64,000 nucleotides of DNA from Patescibacteria group bacterium (GTDB taxonomy: Bacteria > Patescibacteriota > Minisyncoccia > Phycocordibacterales > JAKAEA01), in NCBI GenBank assembly GCA_040387855.1, contig JAZKCY010000001.1, positions 718,922-782,921 on the forward strand, in the 5' to 3' direction. The position numbers and the translations under genes are program-made. Under the pieces are notes generated by a model. It was not told the DNA's origin. It made no database searches and was given only the letters and a program-made list of their open reading frames with translations. How positions within the stretch are numbered: position 1 is the stretch's first letter; every line of letters begins with the position of its first letter. Below, piece by piece: positions 12,211 to 52,421 of this stretch.

Positions 12211-12223
12211 CAGTCAAGCAAAG

Positions 12224-12265
12224 AACCTTACAAAGCTTTTATGGCTCTATGTAAGGTTTTTTTGT
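12224..12265 (+). terminator. rho-independent terminator after tRNA-Leu(TAG)
   Basis: Stem aaccttaca/tgtaaggtt followed by ttttttg. Confidence 0.6.
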
Positions 12266-12277
12266 GTATCTCATCTA

Positions 12278-12307
12278 TTGACAAATAGGCACATATTGTG
12301 ATATAAT
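12278..12307 (+). promoter_or_regulatory. near-consensus sigma70 promoter driving the high-GC island
   Basis: -35 TTGACA at 12278-12283; an 18-nt spacer ending in TG (extended -10); -10 TATAAT at 12302-12307. A GGAG/AAGG ribosome-binding site precedes the ATG at 12376. Confidence 0.6.
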
Positions 12308-12375
12308 ACAGTCTGGTCCTTTGACAACCCAATCTACAACACAAACACCACGTAGTACGTGGAGAAAGGCACCCG

Positions 12376-13632
12376 ATGAACCCAGTTACACAACTGATCA
12401 TTGGTGGAGTGGCGTTCCTCGTGTGCGCCCTCCTCCTCGACATCCTCTGCGAAGAGGTGTGGAGGCCGCTCAAGCCCAAGTTCATGCGTTCGTTGTTTGG
12501 CCGTAAAAAGCGGAACGACGACGATGACAACAAGCCTCAGCACGATAGTGAGGTGAAGCGTTGGAGAAAGTTGAGGACTGCGTTTGCACTAACATTCGCA
12601 GCGATCTGCTTCTTCCTCCCCTTGTTCCTCATGCGACTTGCTCTACAAGACATCGACCCTCGGCTCAACCAGCTGATGGTGTTTGTGAGCTTGTACATCA
12701 TGTGGCATTTCGTGTCTGATGTCCTGCCGAAAATTAGCGTGTACGTGCCGGAAGGACAAGGACTCCTTACCCTCAACCAGTTCACGAAGAAGTTCGTCAT
12801 CTACGGACAGGGATTTAGCTTCCGTTTCCCTTGGGAGACGGTGCACGAGAAGAACCACATCTCGCTCCAGGACCTTACAATCCAGGTGCGCAAGATCAGC
12901 ATCCCCACCAAGGGTGCGAAAATCTACTTGTCGTTCCAGTTCAGCTGGAAGCCGCGTCTGAGCGACCTCGACGTGTTCTTCCAGATCGGTGGCAACATGG
13001 CTGAAGGAGTGTCGGAGAGGTTCCGCGCTATCTTCGAGGAGTTCTTTACCTCGCAGATTCGTCGGATACCTGCCGAAGTCGCTAGCAATGGGCAAATGAT
13101 CCTGAGCTGGTTGGCCCGGTCGGTGTTTGACATCGATCAAGACGAGATCAACCTTGATGACCCAAAAATCAGGAAGATCTACGAAAGGATGTCGAAGTAC
13201 GTCACCCTCGACGGCCAGCAAGGTGCGTTGAGGAATACCCGTCGTGCTCGTGAGCGCAAGTTCGGTGTCGACATGAATACCGTTGAGATAACGGACTTCG
13301 ATTTCGACAGGGATGTCCAAGAGGCACGGAACGCCATCGACATCCTTCGCAAGATGGGCCCGGCTATGCGAAAAAGCATGGGCATCAGTCAGGAGGCTTG
13401 GGAGAAGACCTATGTTAACCCTGACGATCCTGGCGCTCATCAGAGATACCTTGAGCTGTTTCAACAGTTTACGGTCATCACGAAGGACGCCAAGTCAACT
13501 ATCGTCGCAATCCAAGGCGGTAGTAATCAGGGTGATCCGCTGGTGCGAGCTGCTCTTGCAGAGCTTGCGGCCAAATCTCCCGATCCTGTGTTCCAAGCGG
13601 CGTTTGCCCAACTCTTGGCTGCAATGAAGTAA
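12376..13632 (+). CDS. SPFH/band-7 (flotillin/stomatin/HflKC-like) membrane protein, encoded in a high-GC island
   Basis: The 418-aa product has N-terminal TM helices. Its SPFH-like core reads 'VPEGQGLL...FVIYGQGFSFRFPW-ETVHEKNHISLQDLTIQVRKISIPTKGAKIYLSFQFSWKP', compared with the family pattern V.E.E.GVV.rfG..pGlhf.iP..d.v.kvd.R.q..d...q.v.TkD. A later stretch 'FGVDMNTVEITDFDFDRDVQEARNA' matches 'GIEV.sV.I.Di.pP.eVq.Af' and is followed by a helical tail. GC is about 55-58%, against about 38% in the flanks. Confidence 0.55.
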   Translation: MNPVTQLIIGGVAFLVCALLLDILCEEVWRPLKPKFMRSLFGRKKRNDDDDNKPQHDSEVKRWRKLRTAFALTFAAICFFLPLFLMRLALQDIDPRLNQLMVFVSLYIMWHFVSDVLPKISVYVPEGQGLLTLNQFTKKFVIYGQGFSFRFPWETVHEKNHISLQDLTIQVRKISIPTKGAKIYLSFQFSWKPRLSDLDVFFQIGGNMAEGVSERFRAIFEEFFTSQIRRIPAEVASNGQMILSWLARSVFDIDQDEINLDDPKIRKIYERMSKYVTLDGQQGALRNTRRARERKFGVDMNTVEITDFDFDRDVQEARNAIDILRKMGPAMRKSMGISQEAWEKTYVNPDDPGAHQRYLELFQQFTVITKDAKSTIVAIQGGSNQGDPLVRAALAELAAKSPDPVFQAAFAQLLAAMK

Positions 13633-13653
13633 CCTTTCTACAGGAGAAACATC

Positions 13654-14004
13654 ATGGCCAAGAATAAAGGCCAAGACAACAAGTCCGACGACAAGAAACC
13701 GGATGACAAGAAACCGGAACAGAAGAAGTCGCCGGAGCAGATCAACCAAGACGAGATGAAAAATCGCTCGTCAGCGTGGATGAAAGAAGGTCGCGAGAAC
13801 GGCACTAATGGATACAAAGAGTTCTACCCGCGAAATCGTCGCGGAGGATTCTACATCCTGCATGTCATTTTCGCGCTCTGGATCGTGTACGTGGTGATCC
13901 ACACCGCGCGCGAAGAGAAGTCCAAACCCAAGCTCAAACCCCAAGAAAGGAGTGTCCCGAAATGGACAGTAAACACAGCTGGATCGCCCTCCCTATCAGC
14001 GTGA
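13654..14004 (+). CDS. small hypothetical membrane protein (Lys/Asp-rich N-terminus, one TM helix)
   Basis: The 116-aa product lies in the island, is high-GC, and has the TM helix 'FYILHVIFALWIVYVVIHTA'. It is co-directional with the island's SPFH gene. Confidence 0.5.
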   Translation: MAKNKGQDNKSDDKKPDDKKPEQKKSPEQINQDEMKNRSSAWMKEGRENGTNGYKEFYPRNRRGGFYILHVIFALWIVYVVIHTAREEKSKPKLKPQERSVPKWTVNTAGSPSLSA

Positions 14005-14606
14005 TCGTCCTAGCGTTCATCCTCCGAGACTCAGTCTCTACGTTGGTGAACAAGTGGACGACACCCGTGAGGGAGCCGACGATGCAGGAGGCCGTCGACA
14101 AGTTCAATGCCGATAAGGCACGTATCGTGGCTGAGCAGCAAGCTGCCGCGAAAGCAACGGAAGCCATGAAGGCTTCCTTGCTCGGACCGGATTCAACGGC
14201 TTCATCGCCCACGAGTTCGACAACACCGAGCGGAACGCGGATCACACCGCCGCCCGTGTTCGTGTACCAGCCGGGCACAACGCCCGACTACCTACCCTGG
14301 CCAGATGGCAGGGCAGCGCTCATCGCCCCGAGCAGGTTCGATGGCCCACTTGAAGAAGTGAGCATGCGCGCACAAGACTACTACCCTGGCCTGCCTGCAG
14401 GTGTGGTCTACGATTGCGTGATTGTCGTAGAAACCGGAAAGCAAATCTGGATCTACGGCAATGGCTTCCGCGATTCGGCAGCTCATCGACTGCCGGCTCA
14501 TACCGACCTTAGCGGAAAGCCGCTACCGCGGTACCGGCTCATCGACATGATGTCGGTGAACGAGAGTCCCGTAAAGGTGACCCTCGAGTTCAACCGGAAG
14601 AAGTAG
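13962..14606 (+). CDS. hypothetical membrane-anchored protein (N-terminal signal-anchor, Ser/Thr/Pro-rich linker, C-terminal beta-rich domain)
   Basis: The 214-aa product has the N-terminus 'MDSKHSWIALPISVIVLAFIL'. It overlaps the preceding small ORF by 43 nt, so the start is uncertain. It is high-GC. Confidence 0.5.
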   Translation: MDSKHSWIALPISVIVLAFILRDSVSTLVNKWTTPVREPTMQEAVDKFNADKARIVAEQQAAAKATEAMKASLLGPDSTASSPTSSTTPSGTRITPPPVFVYQPGTTPDYLPWPDGRAALIAPSRFDGPLEEVSMRAQDYYPGLPAGVVYDCVIVVETGKQIWIYGNGFRDSAAHRLPAHTDLSGKPLPRYRLIDMMSVNESPVKVTLEFNRKK

Positions 14607-14658
14607 CCGTTGTAGATCGGGCGAAGCAGTTCATTGTGACTTCGGTCACACAAGCCAA

Positions 14659-14697
14659 GCGAGATTTCATTGTACGCAATGAGGTCTCGCTTTTTTA
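14659..14697 (+). terminator. rho-independent terminator closing the high-GC island
   Basis: A 14-bp stem gcgagatttcattg/caatgaggtctcgc (two G·U pairs) with loop tacg, followed by tttttt. A small UUCG-tetraloop hairpin 'tgtgacttcggtcaca' sits just upstream. Confidence 0.6.
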
Positions 14698-14721
14698 TTA
14701 CTCAAATCTCACTTTTTATAC

Positions 14722-14762
14722 AAAAAAAATAACCGCTTACACATGTAAGCGGTTATTTTTTA
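14722..14762. terminator. bidirectional terminator (A-tract / palindrome / T-tract)
   Basis: 'aaaaaaaataaccgcttacacatgtaagcggttattttt'. It overlaps the stop codon of the minus-strand pilin-like gene that ends at 14760. Confidence 0.65.
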
Positions 14763-30257: not shown

Positions 30258-30285
30258 TTGATTTTATGAATATTTATGATATAAT
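30258..30285 (+). promoter_or_regulatory. candidate sigma70 promoter of a GC-rich orphan transcription unit
   Basis: -35 TTGATT at 30258-30263; 16-nt spacer; -10 TATAAT at 30280-30285. Confidence 0.45.
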
Positions 30286-30330
30286 AAATATGTACTTAGG
30301 TCTTTCCATACACTCACCCACGAGGTTGCC

Positions 30331-30558
30331 ATGATGATTCCCCAGTCGATCACGGTGCGAAGCCTCGCATGTGCTTCCATAGCAAAAGCTTGGTTTAGGT
30401 CTTGGCGTCGACGGGTTTGGACGGCTCGGCTAGACAGCGCACAACGAATGCTGTCTCACCTGTCAAAAGAACCTCCCGATCCCTTCACCGATCTGTCTCT
30501 CGAAACCTACGAGCGTAGAGCTAAGGTTGCGAGAGAGAAGATCGAGCACTGGAAGTAA
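30331..30558 (+). CDS. hypothetical 75-aa basic protein in a ~340-bp GC-rich patch (could instead be part of a structured ncRNA)
   Basis: GC is about 55%, against about 37% in the flanks. The patch is bounded by a promoter at 30258-30285 and a hairpin 'cccaccttcgcgaccgcgttggtggg' plus T-run at about 30598-30632. The product 'MMIPQSITVRSLACASIAKAWFRSWRRRVW...' has no recognisable family. Confidence 0.3.
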   Translation: MMIPQSITVRSLACASIAKAWFRSWRRRVWTARLDSAQRMLSHLSKEPPDPFTDLSLETYERRAKVAREKIEHWK

Positions 30559-30646
30559 GCCGCACACGTCCACGGCATATTGGACACAGCCCACCTTCGC
30601 GACCGCGTTGGTGGGCAAAACTTTTATACTTTGATATATAAGTGCT

Positions 30647-32515: not shown

Positions 32516-32872
32516 TTACTCATCTTTGATGAACTCCAGTTTCATGACGGGACCGGTGTAGAAGGAAATCTTGAGGGTTCCTTTCAAACTACAGTCCTGA
32601 GTCATCATGGGGAGGGACACCGAAGATTCACCTGCTGGTACAACGATCTTGAAGGGATTTAATCCCTGGCCGAACATGTAGTACTCACTACCCACAGTGA
32701 CGATGACGGTTTGACCAGTGTCATTGTTGAAGGTAGGTGTCATGGTGACCGATTCGGTCATGCTCAGTGGTGCTGGCGTGGGCTGTGTGTTTTTAGGCAC
32801 ATAGATGTCACAACCAGTGAGCAACACAGATACGGAGAGGAAAAGAACGCAGAGATAGTCACGAAGTCGCAT
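32516..32872 (-). CDS. putative lipoprotein (lipobox LLTGC), hypothetical
   Basis: The 118-aa product has the signal peptide 'MRLRDYLCVLFLSVSVLLTGC' with Cys+1. Its GC is visibly higher than that of its neighbours. Confidence 0.5.
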   Translation of the reverse strand: MRLRDYLCVLFLSVSVLLTGCDIYVPKNTQPTPAPLSMTESVTMTPTFNNDTGQTVIVTVGSEYYMFGQGLNPFKIVVPAGESSVSLPMMTQDCSLKGTLKISFYTGPVMKLEFIKDE

Positions 32873-32984
32873 CAGCCATTTCCTGTAAAAAAGACTAGAC
32901 TACTCACTCAAAATACATAATATCACAAAATAGCGTATTTGTCAATAATTTGATACGCCTATAAATAGCAAGAATTAGTACTTG

Positions 32985-36611: not shown

Positions 36612-36777
36612 TACTAATGATTTTATAAATAAAAGAAACAGGAGAAGTTCATTTTCTGCCTTAATCTTGGTTTAACGTACTATATACTGAATAAGACGCA
36701 AAAATACCCCTGAGCTTACATACACTATATATAATATATACAAAACCCAGCATAGAGTATGCTGGGTTTTGCCAGGG

Positions 36778-36851
36778 TGACCCCACCGGGATTTGAACCC
36801 GGATTACAAGCTTGAAAAGCTCGTGTCCTAACCAGGTTAGACGATGGGGCC
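36778..36851 (-). tRNA. tRNA-Glu (anticodon TTC)
   Basis: Reverse-strand cloverleaf. Acceptor ggcccca/tggggtc; anticodon stem cgagc/gcttg with loop ttTTCaa; T-arm ccggg-ttcaaat-cccgg. A hairpin plus T-run terminator lies downstream at about 36744-36774 on the minus strand. Confidence 0.8.
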
Positions 36852-36947
36852 AGTTAAAGCTCAGATGAGCCGTGGAAAGAATATAACATTTTTTGAGAAA
36901 AAAGCAAAAAGTGTTAATCTAGGCCATATACAACGATAATAAATTCT

Positions 36948-37034
36948 GGAGGAGTGGCTGAGAGGTTGAAGGCACCGCATTCGAAACGCGGCATGGGGTA
37001 AAACTCATCGAGGGTTCAAATCCCTCCTCCTCCG
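36948..37034 (+). tRNA. tRNA-Ser (anticodon CGA), type II
   Basis: 'GGAGGAGTGGCTGAGAGGTTGAAGGC' is a Ser-type D-arm. The anticodon loop is ttCGAaa. There is a long variable arm. T-arm gaggg-ttcaaat-ccctc. G73 discriminator. Confidence 0.8.
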
Positions 37035-37046
37035 CTGTATAATGGG

Positions 37047-37496
37047 GTGATAGCAAGATACATCATGAACGAAGAACAGTGCGCAGGTGGAATAATATTT
37101 AATCCCTCACACGAGGTATTAGTGGTCTGCAACAAAGGCCTTACCTGGTCGTTCCCTAAAGGTCATATTGAAAACGGAGAAGATATTGTGACTGCGGCAT
37201 TCCGTGAAATAAAAGAAGAAACTGGGTTAGACAAAGCCGATCTTACACTTATTAAATCTGTCCCTTCCTATTCCCGCCCAACATTTGATCCTGAACGAGG
37301 CTATGACCATGATCGCAATAAAACGATCCATCTATTTATTTTTAAAGCTTCACGAACTGATGTGAAACCTATCGACCCAGATAATACGGATGCTCGCTGG
37401 GTTGAACCTCGTGTTGCTGAATATATATTAAGTAATCCAGGAGATATCTTAGTTTTCAAAAAGGCTCTGAGTGAGTTGCCTGAAATCTTTTCATAG
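37047..37496 (+). CDS. NUDIX hydrolase
   Basis: Nudix box 'GHIENGEDIVTAAFREIKEETGL'. The product is 149 aa; the start may be the Met at 37065. Confidence 0.8.
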   Translation: MIARYIMNEEQCAGGIIFNPSHEVLVVCNKGLTWSFPKGHIENGEDIVTAAFREIKEETGLDKADLTLIKSVPSYSRPTFDPERGYDHDRNKTIHLFIFKASRTDVKPIDPDNTDARWVEPRVAEYILSNPGDILVFKKALSELPEIFS

Positions 37497-37524
37497 TATC
37501 TTTTGTGTGATTAAATGACCCTAC

Positions 37525-37597
37525 GGGCGGTTAGCTCAGTTGGTAGAGCGCAACATTGACGTTGTTGATGTCAGAGGTTCGAATCCTCTACCGCCCA
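37525..37597 (+). tRNA. tRNA-Val (anticodon GAC)
   Basis: Acceptor gggcggt/accgccc; anticodon stem caaca/tgttg with loop ttGACgt; T-arm agagg-ttcgaat-cctct; discriminator A. Confidence 0.85.
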
Positions 37598-37686
37598 CAA
37601 AATCTGTATTTGACTTATTTAATAATCTATTGTATTTTACTCCCAGTCTTGAACATCCTCGCAATGAATGAAAGGTAGGTACAACC

Positions 37687-38424
37687 ATGTCAGAACTACA
37701 ATTGTGGGAGTGGGCGCAAAAAAATAAGGCGCCCACAAATCCCTCCCCGCTTTACGAAGCAGTGCTCATCGCCACGGTGAAGCTGCCCGACGGACTTGGG
37801 GGGCTCTGCTTCGGAGTCATGCTAGCTAGTCGTGCCAACAACGGTGGTTCGATTACCACCTGCGCCCAAACGTTCCCAGAGGGCGAAAGTTACCAATACG
37901 CCTATGCTCGTATCTGGGAGCAAGTCCCGAAGGACGGGATAATGCTCCGTCCGATCAACAAGATCGTGCCGGCAACAACAACCACGCGGGGACCGAACAC
38001 GGGCCGCCTGCAGGTGCGTGAGTTCTTCGACGGACCGATTGAGCAGGTAGATTTAGCCGTTGCAACGGGAACTGATCGCGGAGGATTGGTTTCCGTGAAC
38101 GGATTCTCCCGCATTCCGCGATTCGAGCGGTGCGACATCGGTCTGTTTAAGGACATGCAGACCAATCCACAAACGGCACTCAACCTGGTAACGGGAAAGC
38201 GAGTGCCCTACGTGGGTCAGAGCGAGTTACAGCATGGATTCGTCACCCGTGCACTTGCCACACCATTCGAGGTTGCTCATCAAGGGGTTCCCTACCTCTA
38301 CGATGACGGATTGATTAGCATTTCAAAGGGCGAAGCATCGGTTGATCTACCAGCTGCTGGAAATCAACCTGCCCAAACGGTTTCGCTCACTGTCGGTGTA
38401 GCATTCGCTCCCGGCATTCGATAA
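37687..38424 (+). CDS. hypothetical protein (245 aa) encoded on a high-GC insert immediately 3' of tRNA-Val
   Basis: GC is about 55-57%, against about 38% in the flanks. The product 'MSELQLWEWAQKNKAPTNPSPLYEAVLIATVKLPDGLGG...' has no signal peptide, no TM helix and no family I can recognise. A terminator hairpin (accac-gtaaca-gtggt-ttttttt) follows at about 38431-38455. Confidence 0.5.
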   Translation: MSELQLWEWAQKNKAPTNPSPLYEAVLIATVKLPDGLGGLCFGVMLASRANNGGSITTCAQTFPEGESYQYAYARIWEQVPKDGIMLRPINKIVPATTTTRGPNTGRLQVREFFDGPIEQVDLAVATGTDRGGLVSVNGFSRIPRFERCDIGLFKDMQTNPQTALNLVTGKRVPYVGQSELQHGFVTRALATPFEVAHQGVPYLYDDGLISISKGEASVDLPAAGNQPAQTVSLTVGVAFAPGIR

Positions 38425-38490
38425 TGCCCACCACGTAACAGTGGTTTTTTTATACTAAAATGAGATACTAACCAGTATTACATCATCTCA

Positions 38491-39609
38491 ATGTTTTCTA
38501 CTCCGCAAAAATACCTAAAAAAAATTCCAGCTGAACTCTGGTACATTCTGAAGCTATTTATTTTCTCACGAATTATTCTAAGTGTTCTTGGTTTTATTGC
38601 AGTAAAAACACTTACTATTCCGGAAGCAGCTTGGCGTTCAGAATATACGAGCAACGCACTTCTTAAAATTTGGGCAGTATGGGATAGCAAATGGTATTTG
38701 GATATTGCTCAACATGGGTATTCTGCAGTACTTCCTTTTAATTCATATCTAGAATCAAACTATGCGTTCTTCCCTCTCTACTCTCTCTGTATCAAATTAG
38801 TATCTTTCCTAACTCAAAATATTTTCATTGCCGGATTAGTAGTTTCAAATGTCTGTTTTATTGCAGCCGCATGGGTTTTTTATAAACTCATAAAATTAGA
38901 TTATTCAGAACAAGTTACAAAGAGATCTTTAAAATATTTATTTTTACTTCCAGCTGCATTTGTATTTTCTGGAATATTTGCAGAATCACTTTTTCTTCTT
39001 TTAGCATTACTCTGTTTTTATAATGCGCGAAAAAACAAGTGGCTTTGGGTTGGAATCTTTGGAATCCTTTTGGGACTTACAAAACCTTTTGCAATACTAA
39101 TTATTCCTGCACTTATTATTATCTATGGAAAACAAATTAAGCTTTCTGCATTAGCTCTATTCTCTCCTCTCATTGGAATAGTGCTTTATGGCTTTTACAC
39201 TCTTAAAGAAGTTGGTGACTTCTTTGCTTATTCACATTTACAACAGCACTCATGGGGGCATTCATATAGTGATCCTCTTACTACCGCATTTGTAGCACTC
39301 ATAAAAGGGAACATCCATGACAAGATATCCTTACTATTTGTAGCTCTTGCTATTGCATTATGTGTATTTAGCTACAAAAAAATAAAGCTCGAATATTTTG
39401 TGTTTACTGTGCTTTTATTATTATTTAACCCATTAACAGGAACATTCGCAGGATCGTTGCGCTACATGATAGTAGGATTCCCTCTTGCCCTTATGCTTGC
39501 AGTCAGCTCAGAAGAATTAGAAAAACATGAATTTCTCGCTATAGCTTTAGCTCTCCTTCAAGGAGGTCTTATGATACTATGGGTGCATAGTATTTGGTTG
39601 CTCGTGTAA
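38491..39609 (+). CDS. GT-C-fold integral membrane glycosyl(mannosyl)transferase-like protein (PIG-V/DUF2029-like)
   Basis: The 372-aa product has about 10 TM helices. Loop-1 carries 'AVWDSKWYLDIAQHGY', which matches the 'WD.gWYl.IAe.GY' motif of PIG-V/DUF2029-type GT-C enzymes. Confidence 0.55.
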   Translation: MFSTPQKYLKKIPAELWYILKLFIFSRIILSVLGFIAVKTLTIPEAAWRSEYTSNALLKIWAVWDSKWYLDIAQHGYSAVLPFNSYLESNYAFFPLYSLCIKLVSFLTQNIFIAGLVVSNVCFIAAAWVFYKLIKLDYSEQVTKRSLKYLFLLPAAFVFSGIFAESLFLLLALLCFYNARKNKWLWVGIFGILLGLTKPFAILIIPALIIIYGKQIKLSALALFSPLIGIVLYGFYTLKEVGDFFAYSHLQQHSWGHSYSDPLTTAFVALIKGNIHDKISLLFVALAIALCVFSYKKIKLEYFVFTVLLLLFNPLTGTFAGSLRYMIVGFPLALMLAVSSEELEKHEFLAIALALLQGGLMILWVHSIWLLV

Positions 39610-39633
39610 TATTTACTTCATAGAACAAACTAT

Positions 39634-40083
39634 ATGCAAGAGAAAAAAAGAGTTGGAGCTGGTTTTGGAGTCATTATTTTAAATAAAGACGGAAAAATTT
39701 TGCTCGGCAAACGACATCCTGATCCAGATAAAGCAGACTCTGCATTTAGAAGCGCTGGTGAGTGGTCACTTCCTGGTGGCAAACTTGATTGGGGTGAATC
39801 ATTTGAAACTGGTGCCATTCGTGAAGTTAAAGAAGAAACTGACATTGATATTACAAATCCCGAAGTGATTTCTGTGCACAATTGCCGTAATGAGCATGCC
39901 CACTTTATGACCGTAGGACTCATAGCACGAGAATGGACTGGTGAAGCAAAAGTTATGGAGCCTGATGAAATGGTAGAATGGGGCTGGTTTGATCTTTCAG
40001 ATTTACCGCAACCACGATACTTCCCTAGTTTTATGGTCATAGAAAATTATCTTCAAAAAAAGTTTTATATTAAACAAGATTAA
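39634..40083 (+). CDS. NUDIX hydrolase (second copy)
   Basis: Nudix box 'GGKLDWGESFETGAIREVKEETDI'; 149 aa. Confidence 0.8.
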   Translation: MQEKKRVGAGFGVIILNKDGKILLGKRHPDPDKADSAFRSAGEWSLPGGKLDWGESFETGAIREVKEETDIDITNPEVISVHNCRNEHAHFMTVGLIAREWTGEAKVMEPDEMVEWGWFDLSDLPQPRYFPSFMVIENYLQKKFYIKQD

Positions 40084-40098
40084 GCACAAAATTACGTA

Positions 40099-41274
40099 AT
40101 GAAAATTCTCGGCATTGAAACAAGTTGTGATGAAACAGCAGTCTGCATTATAGAAGCAGATGGTCGTTTGGATGCACCTCAATTCACTATTAAAGGTGAT
40201 GCTCTTTTTTCGCAAGCAAAAATGCATGCAGAATTTGGCGGCGTGTATCCTACATTGGCAAAACGCGAACATGCAAAAAATTTAGTTCCACTTTTGAAAA
40301 AGGCTCTTGAAGATGCAAAGCTCGCACTTCCAGCTCCTATACTTCTTGATCCTGAATTTGAAACAAAGCTTCAAACAATGCTAGAACGAGAGACTGGTTT
40401 ATACGATGCGGTAAAAGAATTGATTACAACCTATCAAAAACCACCTATTGATCTTATTGCTGTTACAACAGGTCCGGGATTAGAACCAGCACTTTGGGTT
40501 GGTATCGCTTTTGCAAAGGCACTAAGCCTTGCATGGAATATCCCACTTCGAGCTACCAATCACATGGAAGGACATATTGTCTCACCACTTTTAGAACCAA
40601 AAACTAAAGTAGAATTCCCCGCTGTCGCATTACTTATTTCTGGAGGTCATACTGAGCTTGTAGCGGCACGCGGTTGGATGGATTATATGATCCTAGGAAA
40701 AACACGAGACGATGCTGTGGGAGAAGCATTTGATAAGACCGCACGACTTCTCAATTTGCCGTATCCTGGAGGTCCGGAAATTTCTCGACTAGCACAAGAA
40801 GGACGCCTACGAAAAATAAAACCCCAATGGCCACTTCCACGACCTATGATTAGTACAGACAATTTAGATTTCTCTTTTTCAGGAATAAAAACTGCAGTTC
40901 TCTATCTCACTCAGAAACTTCATAGTATGCCTGAGTACTCATATTCATCAGATCTTAGCCCAGAAATTAAAATGGAAATTGCTTTAGAATTTGAAAATGC
41001 AGTAACTGATGTGCTTATTGCAAAAGCTCGAACAGTACTCAACACATATGAAGTTAAAACACTTATCCTTGGAGGAGGCGTGGTAGCTAACTCTTTTATT
41101 CGTGAATCATTTAAGAATTTAGTAAAAGAATTTCCTGAAACAAAACTTTTGATTCCAAATATTACCCATGCAACTGATAATGCGCTTATGATCGCTGCTG
41201 CAGGATATTTAAACTATCTCAAAAACGGACCTACAACTGAAGAACTTAAAGCTGAAGGAAATTTAAGTTTGTAA
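40099..41274 (+). CDS. tsaD: tRNA N6-adenosine threonylcarbamoyltransferase (Kae1/TsaD family)
   Basis: 'ILGIETSCDETAVCIIE', the metal-binding 'HMEGHI', and 'LISGGHTEL' are present. Confidence 0.88.
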   Translation: MKILGIETSCDETAVCIIEADGRLDAPQFTIKGDALFSQAKMHAEFGGVYPTLAKREHAKNLVPLLKKALEDAKLALPAPILLDPEFETKLQTMLERETGLYDAVKELITTYQKPPIDLIAVTTGPGLEPALWVGIAFAKALSLAWNIPLRATNHMEGHIVSPLLEPKTKVEFPAVALLISGGHTELVAARGWMDYMILGKTRDDAVGEAFDKTARLLNLPYPGGPEISRLAQEGRLRKIKPQWPLPRPMISTDNLDFSFSGIKTAVLYLTQKLHSMPEYSYSSDLSPEIKMEIALEFENAVTDVLIAKARTVLNTYEVKTLILGGGVVANSFIRESFKNLVKEFPETKLLIPNITHATDNALMIAAAGYLNYLKNGPTTEELKAEGNLSL

Positions 41275-41321
41275 GCCTCAGTCTCTAGAATTATAGCCCT
41301 GCTTCTGCTATACTCACTTTT

Positions 41322-43457
41322 ATGAACGACAAGTTTTTACAGCCCTACAATCCTCAGGAAACCGAGGACCGAATTTATAAAAAATGGGAAGATTCAGGAT
41401 ATTTTAATCCCGATAATTTGCCAGGTGATCGAAAGGAGACATTTACTGTTGTGCTCCCTCCTCCAAACGTAACCGGAGTGCTACATATTGGTCATGCCTA
41501 TGAAGACACGCTTCAAGATGCAGTAATTCGATTTCAGAGAATGCGAGGTAAAAAAGCATTGTGGATTCCTGGTACTGACTCTGCTGCAATTGCGACTCAA
41601 GCACGAGTGGAAAAAAACATTCAAAAAGACGAAGGTAAATCTCGTCATGATCTTGGTCGTGAAGAACTAGTAAAAAGAGTTAATGAATTTGCCAAGCAAA
41701 GTGAAAACACTATCTTAAGCCAGGTACGGAAAATGGGATCATCACTTGATTGGTCTCGCTATGCATATACTCTTGATGAAAAGCGAAACAAATCGGTAAT
41801 GACTGCATTTGTAAACATGTACAATGCTGGACTAATTTATCAAGGAGGACGAATTGTAAACTGGGATCCAAAAGGCCAGACAACTATTTCAGATGATGAA
41901 ATTGTGTATCAGGAAGAAAAAACGAAATTCTATCATTTTAAGTATGGACCTTTTGAAATAGGTACCGCACGACCTGAAACAAAGTTTGGAGACAAATATG
42001 TAGTGATGCATCCTGATGATACTCGCTATGCAAACTATATTCATGGACAGAAAATAGATCTTGAGTGGATCAACGGGCCTATAACAGCAACTATTATCAA
42101 AGATACTGCAATTGATATGGAATTTGGTACTGGAGTTATGACAATTACTCCTTGGCATAGTGCTGTCGACTTTGAAATCGCTGAACGACACAATTTAGAT
42201 AAAGAGCAGATTATTGATAAGTACGGAAAACTACTTACAACAGAAACCATTGGTGAATTTGGTGGCATAAAAATTACCGAAGCTCGACAAAAAATTGTCG
42301 AAAAGCTTCGAGCAAAAGGTTTGGTTACTAAAGAAGAAGATTATGTCCACAATATAGCGACATCAGAACGAACAGGTGCAACTATTGAACCTCAAATCAT
42401 GAAACAATGGTGGGTTGGTGTTGATAAAGAATTTACACAACACGGAAAGACAACTACGCTTAAGGAAATAATGCGTAAAGCAGTTGAAAGTGGTGAAGTT
42501 TCAATGCCTCAAGAACGATTTAGCAAATCATACTTCCATTGGATAAATAATCTTCACGACTGGTGTATCTCTCGACAAATTTGGTTTGGACATAGAATTC
42601 CAGTTTGGTATAAAAATTCAGAGATCTATTGTGGACTTGAAGCACCTCAAGGAGATGGCTGGGAACAAGAAGCAGATGTACTTGATACATGGTTCTCTTC
42701 TGCTCTTTGGACATTCTCAACTCTCGGTTGGCCAGAAAAAACTAAAGATCTGGAAACATTTCATCCCACGGCATTTATGTCCCCTGCCTATGAAATTCTT
42801 AATCTCTGGGTATCACGAATGATTATGATGAGTGGTTTTCATCTCAATCAAGTTCCCTTTAAGACAGTACTTATTCACGGATTAGTTCGAGATAAGCAAG
42901 GACGAAAATTTAGTAAATCACTCAACAACGGAGTAGATCCTTTAGACATGGTTGCAAAGTATGGTGCTGATGCATTGCGTATGGGTCTTATGGTAGGTAC
43001 AGCTATTGGTAATGATATTCAGTTTGATGAGAGTAAAGTTAAGGGTTATAAAAACTTCGCAAATAAACTTTGGAATATTACTAGATTCATTCTCACATCA
43101 GATCCAAAAGAAACATCTGATGCACTCTTACCTATTGATCAAGCACATCTTGATGCATTAAACATTGTAATAGCTGATGTGACAAAAGACTTTGAAGAAT
43201 ACCGCCTCTACATGGCTGCAGAAAAAATCTATCACTATATATGGGATGAATTGGCAGATAAAATAATCGAAGAATCAAAACCAATCTTAGCTGGTGAAGA
43301 TGCTGTTGCAAAAACATCACGACAAAATCTACTCCTTAGATTACTAAAAATAAATGTGAAAGCACTTCATCCTTTTATGCCATTTGTTACTGAAGAGATC
43401 TGGAGTATGTTACCAAATACTGATACTATGTTAATGATCGAAGATTGGCCAGTCTAA
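41322..43457 (+). CDS. valS: valyl-tRNA synthetase (compact form)
   Basis: Class I aaRS with 'PPPNVTGVLHIGHAYE', 'GTDSAAIATQARVEK' and KMSKS as 'KFSKSLNNGVDP'. The 711-aa length is short for ValRS. Confidence 0.8.
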   Translation: MNDKFLQPYNPQETEDRIYKKWEDSGYFNPDNLPGDRKETFTVVLPPPNVTGVLHIGHAYEDTLQDAVIRFQRMRGKKALWIPGTDSAAIATQARVEKNIQKDEGKSRHDLGREELVKRVNEFAKQSENTILSQVRKMGSSLDWSRYAYTLDEKRNKSVMTAFVNMYNAGLIYQGGRIVNWDPKGQTTISDDEIVYQEEKTKFYHFKYGPFEIGTARPETKFGDKYVVMHPDDTRYANYIHGQKIDLEWINGPITATIIKDTAIDMEFGTGVMTITPWHSAVDFEIAERHNLDKEQIIDKYGKLLTTETIGEFGGIKITEARQKIVEKLRAKGLVTKEEDYVHNIATSERTGATIEPQIMKQWWVGVDKEFTQHGKTTTLKEIMRKAVESGEVSMPQERFSKSYFHWINNLHDWCISRQIWFGHRIPVWYKNSEIYCGLEAPQGDGWEQEADVLDTWFSSALWTFSTLGWPEKTKDLETFHPTAFMSPAYEILNLWVSRMIMMSGFHLNQVPFKTVLIHGLVRDKQGRKFSKSLNNGVDPLDMVAKYGADALRMGLMVGTAIGNDIQFDESKVKGYKNFANKLWNITRFILTSDPKETSDALLPIDQAHLDALNIVIADVTKDFEEYRLYMAAEKIYHYIWDELADKIIEESKPILAGEDAVAKTSRQNLLLRLLKINVKALHPFMPFVTEEIWSMLPNTDTMLMIEDWPV

Positions 43458-52116: not shown

Positions 52117-52123
52117 GATGTGT

Positions 52124-52421
52124 ATGCCTTGCATCGATAAGCCGAATTCTGTCGTGGATAATCATTTATCTGGGCCCACCCTTACGAGTGAGCTCAAGCG
52201 GCACTCCCAACTCAACCTTGCGGCTTCGTGGGCTCGGCCTTGCACCTAGGTAAGAATTTAGCCGTTTCACTCCCACTAAAGGGATTCGTCACTGTTCGCA
52301 TCTCGGTAGCTCGCATACAAGCTACGACGGGCGTTACCCGCTACCCTACTGCTCTTTCAAGCAAGTGTTCGGACTTTCCTCACCTCACCTTGCGATGAAG
52401 CGCGATTATCTAATGCAAGAT
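52124..52421 (-). ncRNA. rnpB: RNase P RNA (bacterial type A, compact ~300 nt)
   Basis: The reverse strand contains universally conserved blocks: '...GGUGAGGAAAGUCCGAACAC' (P4 5' strand, compare E. coli GGGGAGGAAAGUCCGGGCUCC); 'AGGGUAGCGGGUAACGCCCG' (compare AGGGCAGGUAACGCCUGGG); and 'CAGAUAAAUGAUUAUCCACGACAGAAUUCGGCUUAUCG' (compare CUAGAUGAAUGACUGUCCACGACAGAACCCGGCUUAUCGG). P1 is cuugcau/augcaag. A TTGATT-16-TATAAT promoter lies at 52428-52455 on the minus strand. Exact ends are ±5 nt. Confidence 0.88.

Follow-up and report, generated by a model that had tools for sequence, protein, structure and literature searches.

A GC-rich orphan gene directly downstream of tRNA-Val in a Patescibacteria chromosome, probably a small horizontally acquired islet

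Phage morons are defined as genes that differ in GC content from their surroundings and that carry a promoter and a terminator of their own, gene 15 of phage HK97 being of this type (Cumby, Davidson & Maxwell 2012, PMC3594210). Single genes flanked by hammerhead ribozymes have been described in prophages (Perreault et al. 2011, PMC3088659), and the same arrangement is discussed below for one homolog of the gene that is considered here. In the Patescibacteria, an analysis of 125 genomes revealed hundreds of islands and transferred genes, which occupy up to 13% of the genome length (PMC12455944).

The stretch of Patescibacteria DNA that was analyzed here, further called the window, measures 64,000 nucleotides and contains an orphan gene of 245 codons, ORF245. 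Positions 37599-38452 of the window probably represent a small, horizontally acquired accessory islet of a single gene, moron-like in its features, which occupies a variable slot between tRNA-Val and tsaD in a Paceibacteria-type chromosome. The database entry of the encoded protein describes it as hypothetical and places it in a Patescibacteria MAG, on a contig of 981,549 bp.

The tRNA-Val(GAC) gene is located at 37525-37598 on the plus strand (ARAGORN; Rfam RF00005, 71.1 bits). Upstream of it, ARAGORN and Rfam identified tRNA-Glu(ttc) at 36775-36852 on the minus strand and tRNA-Ser(cga) at 36948-37035 on the plus strand. The three tRNA genes together span 824 bp, in line with an earlier note on this DNA that had described the site as tRNA-dense. 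Directly 3' of the tRNA-Val end follows an AT-rich leader of 88 nt (37599-37686, plus strand; GC 0.318) and then the coding sequence (CDS) of ORF245, which appears in the ORF list at 37687-38424 on the plus strand, starts with ATG and specifies 245 amino acids. A trailer of 66 nt (38425-38490; GC 0.348) precedes the next gene, which starts at 38491. The surroundings are core chromosome, with genes for FtsZ, a thioredoxin reductase-like protein, TsaD and a class I aaRS, besides the tRNAs, NUDIX hydrolases and a mannosyltransferase. The earlier note had placed ORF245 between two NUDIX genes. Both exist, i.e., NUDIX1 (37047-37496), upstream of tRNA-Val, and NUDIX2 (39634-40083), but they flank ORF245 only loosely, with the tRNA intervening on one side and the gene for the Gpi18-like mannosyltransferase on the other. 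The core of the earlier description, a high-GC insert directly 3' of tRNA-Val carrying one 245-aa ORF, agrees with the coordinates, the GC content and the assembly. Run SRR26324620 has also been assembled independently in Logan, and this assembly matches the window at 100% identity across 37543-41424, a segment that spans the 3' part of tRNA-Val, the leader, ORF245 and four downstream genes. Thus, the junctions between low-GC and high-GC DNA are not an assembly chimera.

The leader contains a sigma-70-like sequence, TTGACT-17-TATTTT, at 37610-37638, with a score of 9/12, and an SD-like AGGTAGG at 37673-37679; RNA folding revealed no stable structure in it (z = +1.03). The weak promoter that had been noted here is therefore present as a sequence, but it does not rise above background, since the scan found 34 promoter-like sites where 32.6 are expected in shuffled sequence, and a score of 9/12 is the background level in AT-rich DNA. 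Because the promoter-like site is no better than background, ORF245 is unproven as an autonomous unit. At the other end, a terminator scan and RNA folding located a hairpin, ACCAC-GTAACA-GTGGT followed by T7, at 38430-38452 on the plus strand, ending 39 nt before the next gene. The terminator hairpin reported earlier is thus present and resembles an intrinsic terminator, but it is weak, with a stem (38430-38445) of 5 bp. Transcription of ORF245 may start at the weak promoter in its leader, or result from read-through of the tRNA-Val transcript, or both, read-through being proposed because no terminator is present between tRNA-Val and ORF245. In that case, processing of tRNA-Val by RNase P/Z would free the ORF245 mRNA. 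Transcription would end at the hairpin at 38430-38452.

The CDS has a GC content of 0.554, with 0.618, 0.467 and 0.577 at the first, second and third codon positions (GC1, GC2 and GC3), respectively, as compared to a mean GC content of 0.390 for the window. In the flanking genes, GC is 0.35-0.41 and GC3 is 0.21-0.33. The excess is limited to the CDS and stops exactly at its ends. In a leave-one-out synonymous-codon likelihood with the 44 core genes of the window as the reference, ORF245 scored 7.8 SD below these genes, far beyond chance. Together with the deviating GC3, this upholds the foreign origin that had been proposed. Native codon usage, or presence of the gene with native composition at this locus in relatives, had been named as evidence to the contrary; the codon usage is deviant, and relatives have no ORF245 in the syntenic slot (see below).

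The window also contains an island at 12 kb, the three genes of which (12.3-14.6 kb) deviate in codon usage by -7.8 to -10.3 SD, and ORF245 falls within this range. From similar GC levels, the earlier note had suggested that both derive from the same donor. GC3 differs, however (0.577 vs. 0.687; z = 3.2), and the proteins are unrelated: when ORF245 was considered as a relative of the island proteins or of other high-GC cargo, no homology was found. A shared donor is thus not supported by these data.

The ORF245 protein has a mass of 26.4 kDa and a pI of 6.2. As had been noted before, it lacks a TM helix or hydrophobic segment, the maximum Kyte-Doolittle mean over 19 residues being 1.48. Its description as an orphan is confirmed as well. 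Homolog searches in 5.8 billion clusters and 1.84 billion representatives yielded a family of only four among about 15 billion proteins, i.e., the window protein, P0002 (58% identity), P0051 (52%) and P0003 (49%). No matches were found in Pfam, PHROG, NCBIfam, PADLOC or among PDB sequences, whether the query was the single protein or the four-member set. Searches with the family alignment revealed no further members in GTDB species genomes, IMG/VR or JGI metagenome contigs, and tblastn detected no relatives in INPHARED phages or PLSDB plasmids. In the four-member alignment, residues 1-94, with 43% invariant positions including Cys41, and residues 151-215, with 38%, form conserved blocks, and residues 95-120 and the tail of residues 216-245 are variable. 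The ORF is intact in all four genomes, with 245-264 codons.

Structure prediction with AlphaFold2 reached a pLDDT of 30 when two sequences were supplied and a pLDDT of 48 with a pTM of 0.50 when three were supplied. In the latter model, only residues ~150-242 attain a pLDDT of 57-77, and these form β strands. Foldseek searches of PDB and BFVD with this model yielded nothing below E = 0.02. The top matches are weak (the PilZ structure 5y6g with E = 0.076 and TM 0.24/0.38, and a viral protein with E = 0.023); they comprise PilZ, Hcp and tail-tube-like small β-barrels, all with TM < 0.4, and have no evidential value. Two specific identities were considered and discarded. For PilZ, the motifs RxxxR and DxSxxG are not conserved in the family alignment as read by eye. 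For an arylamine N-acetyltransferase or papain-like enzyme with a Cys-His-Asp triad, an idea raised by an invariant CFG, the four-member alignment contains no invariant His. We infer that the product is probably a soluble, β-rich, cytoplasmic protein, and it would act alone, as three of the four members lack a conserved partner gene. By analogy with morons, one might guess at an accessory or conflict role, e.g., in phage exclusion or host interaction.

Each homolog occupies a different chromosomal site and none adjoins a tRNA; tRNA genes are absent altogether from the three homolog loci for which DNA was inspected, L001-L003. The three family members with DNA are all richer in GC than their flanks and have similar values for GC1 (0.60-0.63) and GC2 (0.43-0.47). 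L001, a locus of 3.1 kb, contains an operon of three genes (898-2714; GC 0.50) with the homolog in the middle; the operon lies within DNA of about 37-42% GC and is preceded by a promoter, TTGACT…TGTGATATAAT. In L002, to which L003 is identical in sequence, the homolog has a GC content of 0.56, its own promoter (TTGACT-16-TATAAT) and a strong terminator, and it adjoins a metallophosphoesterase (Metallophos) gene. An unrelated high-GC orphan of 211 amino acids follows the homolog in L002, likewise with its own promoter and terminator. The context of P0051, seen at the protein level, is ordinary chromosome, between a partial gene on one side and genes for Glyoxalase, YceG and pilin-like proteins on the other.

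The site of ORF245 was compared with those in relatives, which were found by scanning metagenome contigs for the 31-mer at the 3' end of tRNA-Val; this yielded 24 loci. In two of these (L087 and L104), with a tRNA-Val identical in 73 of 73 positions, the tRNA is followed by a gene for a 188-aa protein, then by the genes for TsaD and the class I aaRS. In another (L093), a gene for a 211-aa SAM-methyltransferase lies between tRNA-Val and the same two genes. The divergent pair of tRNA-Ser(cga) and tRNA-Glu(ttc) is retained close by in two other loci (L107 and L108). The genes in the slot of the first three loci have native GC, and ORF245 is absent; the interval between tRNA-Val and TsaD measures 0.6 kb in the relatives vs. 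2.5 kb in the window. Going by gene order, the neighborhood of tRNA-Val, TsaD and aaRS is ancestral, and the interval between the first two is a variable slot. These syntenic comparators are distant, with TsaD 42-52% identical, and show that the presence of ORF245 is lineage-specific rather than how old the insertion is. Among 80 TsaD loci in GTDB, from Paceibacteria, Taylorbacteria and Zambryskibacteria MAGs with TsaD up to 61% identical, the upstream region is not conserved, and the nearest relatives of the mannosyltransferase (48 and 40% identity) are not syntenic. Searches with TsaD, the mannosyltransferase and tRNA-Val found no close relative with an empty site. A side observation concerns other Paceibacteria, in which an unannotated, structured RNA derived from tRNA-Val adjoins the same tRNA and repeats its 5' and 3' ends.

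ORF245 is not the only compositionally deviant unit in the window. A second tRNA-adjacent high-GC operon begins after tRNA-Leu(tag) at 12212, and at least two further high-GC mini-units are not near a tRNA. The first is a 75-aa ORF at 30331-30558 on the plus strand, between ftsZ and the thioredoxin reductase-like gene; the second encodes a 118-aa lipoprotein at 32516-32872 on the minus strand and has a codon usage z of -7.2. Both carry terminator-like hairpins and the best two promoter matches of a 13-kb scan (10/12 and 11/12), and both matches have a TG extension. About 58 high-GC patches were counted in related Paceibacteria loci totalling 1.44 Mb, i.e., ~4 per 100 kb, a patch being defined as at least 400 nt with a GC content at least 12 points over the local median. 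Many patches are filled by a single ORF, and the ORFs are mostly unrelated to one another. Six of the ten patch ORFs tested lacked a Pfam family, and the remaining ones encode OMP decarboxylase, an HTH_17 (excisionase-type) protein and PEP-CTERM proteins. Events of the kind represented by ORF245 are thus known and common in Patescibacteria genomes.

The position of the unit, which begins 1 nt past tRNA-Val, raises the question whether it is the remnant or a miniature of a tRNA-targeted integrative element, which a recombinase inserted at the 3' end of tRNA-Val, and similarly of tRNA-Leu, with later decay of its integrase and att sites. The high-GC operon after tRNA-Leu, the varying content of the slot between tRNA-Val and TsaD among relatives and the dynamic 3' flank seen with the tRNA-Val-derived element of other relatives are all compatible with such an origin, and the earlier note had similarly proposed a recurrent, tRNA-linked route of acquisition. 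However, no recombinase ORF is present at 36.6-41.3 kb or at 12.2-14.8 kb. The longest k-mer shared with the distal boundary counts 6 nt, which was equalled in 429 of 500 shuffles for tRNA-Val and in 436 of 500 for tRNA-Leu, and the repeat gcccac, mentioned before as a weak candidate, is accordingly due to chance. The three homologs are not located at tRNAs, and neither are two of the four high-GC units of the window. As about 15 of the 72 intergenic gaps touch a tRNA, finding two of four units beside one has a P of ≈0.19. Furthermore, the GC excess ends exactly at the CDS ends, and an insert of 0.86 kb is far smaller than a typical integrative element. Integration targeted to the tRNA is therefore unlikely, and the recurrent route lacks support. 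Most simply, the adjacency to the tRNA means that insertions are tolerated in a variable intergenic slot. An integron cassette was also considered and rejected, as no significant attC-like inverted repeat brackets ORF245.

Rather improbable, too, is that ORF245 is an old, vertically inherited gene in which high GC has been kept by selection on amino acids, on mRNA structure or stability, or on expression. The similarity of GC1 and GC2 in all members would fit such selection, as would a protein that is rich in Ala, Gly, Pro, Thr and Arg and poor in Lys and Ile, the confinement of the GC excess to the CDS, and the high GC of all members with DNA in spite of their divergence to 49-58% identity. 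But synonymous codon choice, which is independent of the amino-acid content, is what deviates by 7.8 SD, with a GC3 of 0.58 vs. about 0.25. The gene is, moreover, at a different locus in each of the four genomes and missing from the syntenic slot of relatives, its family counts only four members among roughly 15 billion proteins, although Patescibacteria MAGs number in the thousands, and unrelated high-GC ORFs show a similarly scattered distribution. With members that are 49-58% identical, all GC-richer where DNA is available and at different loci, separate acquisitions of fairly recent date fit better than ancient vertical descent.

The locus L001 deserves separate discussion. Its homolog is flanked, in the co-oriented operon, by two motifs resembling type III hammerhead ribozymes, for which a CUGAUGA…GAAA core, a junction of three stems and cleavage at an NUH were taken as the criterion. 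The predicted cleavage sites are 898 nt apart. The motif at 1451-1501 matches RF00008 with 31.1 bits (E = 5.6e-4), under the gathering score of 48.5; in the one at 2349-2399, the three-way junction is the minimum-energy fold (z = -2.07), but positions 10.1/11.1 are U·U. Each motif is followed by a conserved GTGATCTTTTGAAATCAAATA, and no exact match to this 21-nt motif behind the hammerheads was found in IMG/VR. As an observation in its own right, this hammerhead-punctuated high-GC operon may outweigh ORF245 itself in worth, as may the tRNA-Val-derived RNA of other Paceibacteria described above.

These motifs also invite a far more speculative reading, to which only a very small chance can be given: the ORF245 family could be carried by a mobile agent of Patescibacteria, unsampled and richer in GC, in which RNA-processing sites delimit the genes and these move via an RNA intermediate. 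Self-cleavage at both hammerhead-like motifs in L001 would then set free an RNA as long as the gene, the ends of which could be ligated as in retrozymes, and in the window the tRNA, which is processed by RNase P/Z, would take the upstream position of the L001 hammerhead. If true, movement at the RNA level would account for the GC excess being restricted to the CDS, for the missing integrase and att sites and for the differing sites of the homologs.

It is scarcely credible, finally, that the segment is a GC-rich structured ncRNA or an artefact of assembly or binning: a high GC content is a classic mark of ncRNA in AT-rich genomes, and family or fold matches are lacking and AlphaFold confidence is poor, but four genomes keep an intact ORF of 245-264 codons with divergence dominated by third positions, an Rfam family match at the ORF245 locus is absent, and two independent assemblies have the same sequence at the downstream junction and where the unit meets the 3' part of the tRNA. 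Between pairs of homologs, codons differ at the third position in 0.62-0.71, at the first in 0.31-0.46 and at the second in 0.25-0.34, and 66-81 codon changes per pair are synonymous only. This third-position-dominated divergence argues for translation and against a structured RNA and, judged from these alignments, ORF245 is a real translated gene under purifying selection. No hammerhead, other ribozyme or ncRNA was found at the window locus.

Acquisition of a single-gene islet thus remains the preferred explanation. The family copies would be the result of separate, fairly recent transfers out of a gene pool that is richer in GC and unsampled, with phages or other mobile elements of these bacteria as the most likely source. 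Such a source is suggested by the position of the L001 homolog between hammerhead-like motifs in an operon, which is typical of prophages; as no phage, plasmid or virus with a relative was found in IMG/VR, INPHARED or PLSDB, the mobile-element origin remains inferential. By itself, ORF245 carries little weight, being one more foreign orphan in a phylum with documented horizontal acquisition. Nevertheless, it is a clean, assembly-verified case of a foreign signal that does not extend beyond the coding sequence, and its family is a minor part of the "dark" pool of accessory genes in ultra-small bacteria, a pool whose source is unsampled.

Among the known systems, tRNA-linked islands and integrative elements share with the ORF245 unit the location directly 3' of a tRNA, a deviant composition and a variable slot. 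In contrast to them, the unit has no integrase or att repeat, comprises one gene on 0.86 kb, and has homologs that are not at tRNAs. The hammerhead-flanked genes of prophages (PMC3088659) resemble the L001 homolog, which lies between two type III-like motifs in a co-oriented operon. However, the motif match in L001 is under the Rfam gathering threshold and cleavage is predicted from sequence, and the window copy is without a ribozyme, the corresponding place upstream being taken by a tRNA.

With phage morons, ORF245 has in common that its GC content is sharply unlike that of its neighbors, that it is an extra gene relative to its (distant) syntenic relatives, that the unit is bracketed by promoter-like and terminator-like signals and encodes a small, accessory-type protein, and that the family is patchily distributed by horizontal transfer. 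Strictly, it is no moron, since it lies in the core chromosome and not between conserved prophage genes; its promoter is at background strength, and no phage with a relative is known. The islands described in Patescibacteria (PMC12455944) differ in that they were recognized at the level of islands and transfer pairs with identifiable donors, whereas ORF245 is a single orphan from an unsampled donor, but they belong to the same phylum and likewise consist of acquired genes of deviant composition, many of which are hypothetical.

The gene neighborhood of the window tRNA-Val(GAC), behind which the high-GC orphan gene ORF245 is located, was compared between window positions 36775-43457 and five metagenome contigs sharing this tRNA (L087, L093, L104, L107, and L108). 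The order tRNA-Val, TsaD, class I aminoacyl-tRNA synthetase is kept in L087/L104 and in L093. L107 and L108 also retain, close to tRNA-Val, the divergently oriented genes for tRNA-Ser(cga) and tRNA-Glu(ttc), but their TsaD is found on the other side of tRNA-Val. Among the syntenic loci, content differs only in the interval between tRNA-Val and TsaD.

High-GC patches, defined as stretches of at least 400 nt with a GC content at least 12 points over the local median, are found at approximately 4 per 100 kb in the Paceibacteria loci (~58 patches in ~1.44 Mb; L004-L110). Many of them are filled by a single ORF. Six of the ten tested patch ORFs lack a Pfam family, and the others encode OMP decarboxylase, HTH_17, and PEP-CTERM proteins. 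In L094, L095, and L103, patch ORFs are located within ~1.5 kb of the same tRNA-Val. One GC-rich patch of the window is due to an ordinary gene for bacterial class A RNase P RNA (52122-52421, minus strand; 121.6 bits).

The window contains two further high-GC mini-units, both located away from tRNAs. The first (30258-30625), between ftsZ and a thioredoxin-reductase-like gene, contains an orphan ORF of 75 aa (30331-30558; GC 0.53), preceded by a promoter (TTGATT-16-TATAAT, 10/12) with TG extension, and a GC-rich hairpin at ~30590-30625. The second (32516-32945, minus strand) encodes a lipoprotein-like orphan of 118 aa with the lipobox LLTGC, a GC3 of 0.59, and a codon-usage z of -7.2; its promoter (TTGACA-17-TATTAT, 11/12, also with TG extension) was the top promoter match in a 13-kb scan. 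A second high-GC orphan is also present in L002, one of the metagenome loci carrying an ORF245 homolog. This gene (1793-2580; 211 aa; GC 0.59; GC3 0.74) is unrelated to the homolog, comes with a TTGACT promoter of its own plus a strong terminator, and is separated from the homolog by 1 kb containing a native metallophosphoesterase gene.

The 12-kb island, another high-GC insert of the window, is a three-gene operon (12212-14760) set apart from the adjacent tRNA-Leu(tag) by a terminator hairpin. It encodes a membrane protein of 418 aa that weakly matches SPFH/Band 7, a Lys-rich protein of 116 aa with a TM segment, and an orphan of 214 aa. The operon is preceded by a near-consensus promoter (TTGACA…TGTGATATAAT) and has a terminator at ~14680-14700; it has neither an integrase nor an att repeat.

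In L001 (JGI Ga0604933_0109516), the ORF245 homolog, in a high-GC operon of three genes, lies between two motifs resembling type III hammerhead ribozymes. The first (1451-1501) matches RF00008 with 31.1 bits, below the gathering score; in the second (2349-2399), positions 10.1/11.1 are occupied by a U·U pair. Cleavage is predicted after C1456 and after U2354, 898 nt apart. Both motifs are followed by a conserved GTGATCTTTTGAAATCAAATA and then an RBS; this 21-mer had no exact match in IMG/VR.

Seven of the 24 contigs sharing the window tRNA-Val have, 3' of this tRNA, a hairpin followed by a non-coding element of 115-153 nt, which the window lacks. With tRNA-Val set on the plus strand, the element is located at L091:255-397, L092:8873-~9013, L098:113-~248, L099:113-~265, L106:110-224, L107:3471-3615, and L108:4830-4978. 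It starts with the 5' acceptor strand of tRNA-Val (GGGCGGU), contains a conserved GUGAGGAUUCGAA and a variable insert of 50-90 nt, and ends with GAAAUUCCUCUACCGCCCA, a copy of the tRNA-Val 3' end. A hairpin within the element shows four compensatory pairs, and RNAalifold predicted an acceptor-like stem and a GAGGA/UCCUC helix. ARAGORN called neither a tRNA nor a tmRNA in the element, and no gathering-level Rfam match was obtained for the four loci searched (L091, L098, L099, and L106). The element may represent an undescribed tRNA-derived RNA.
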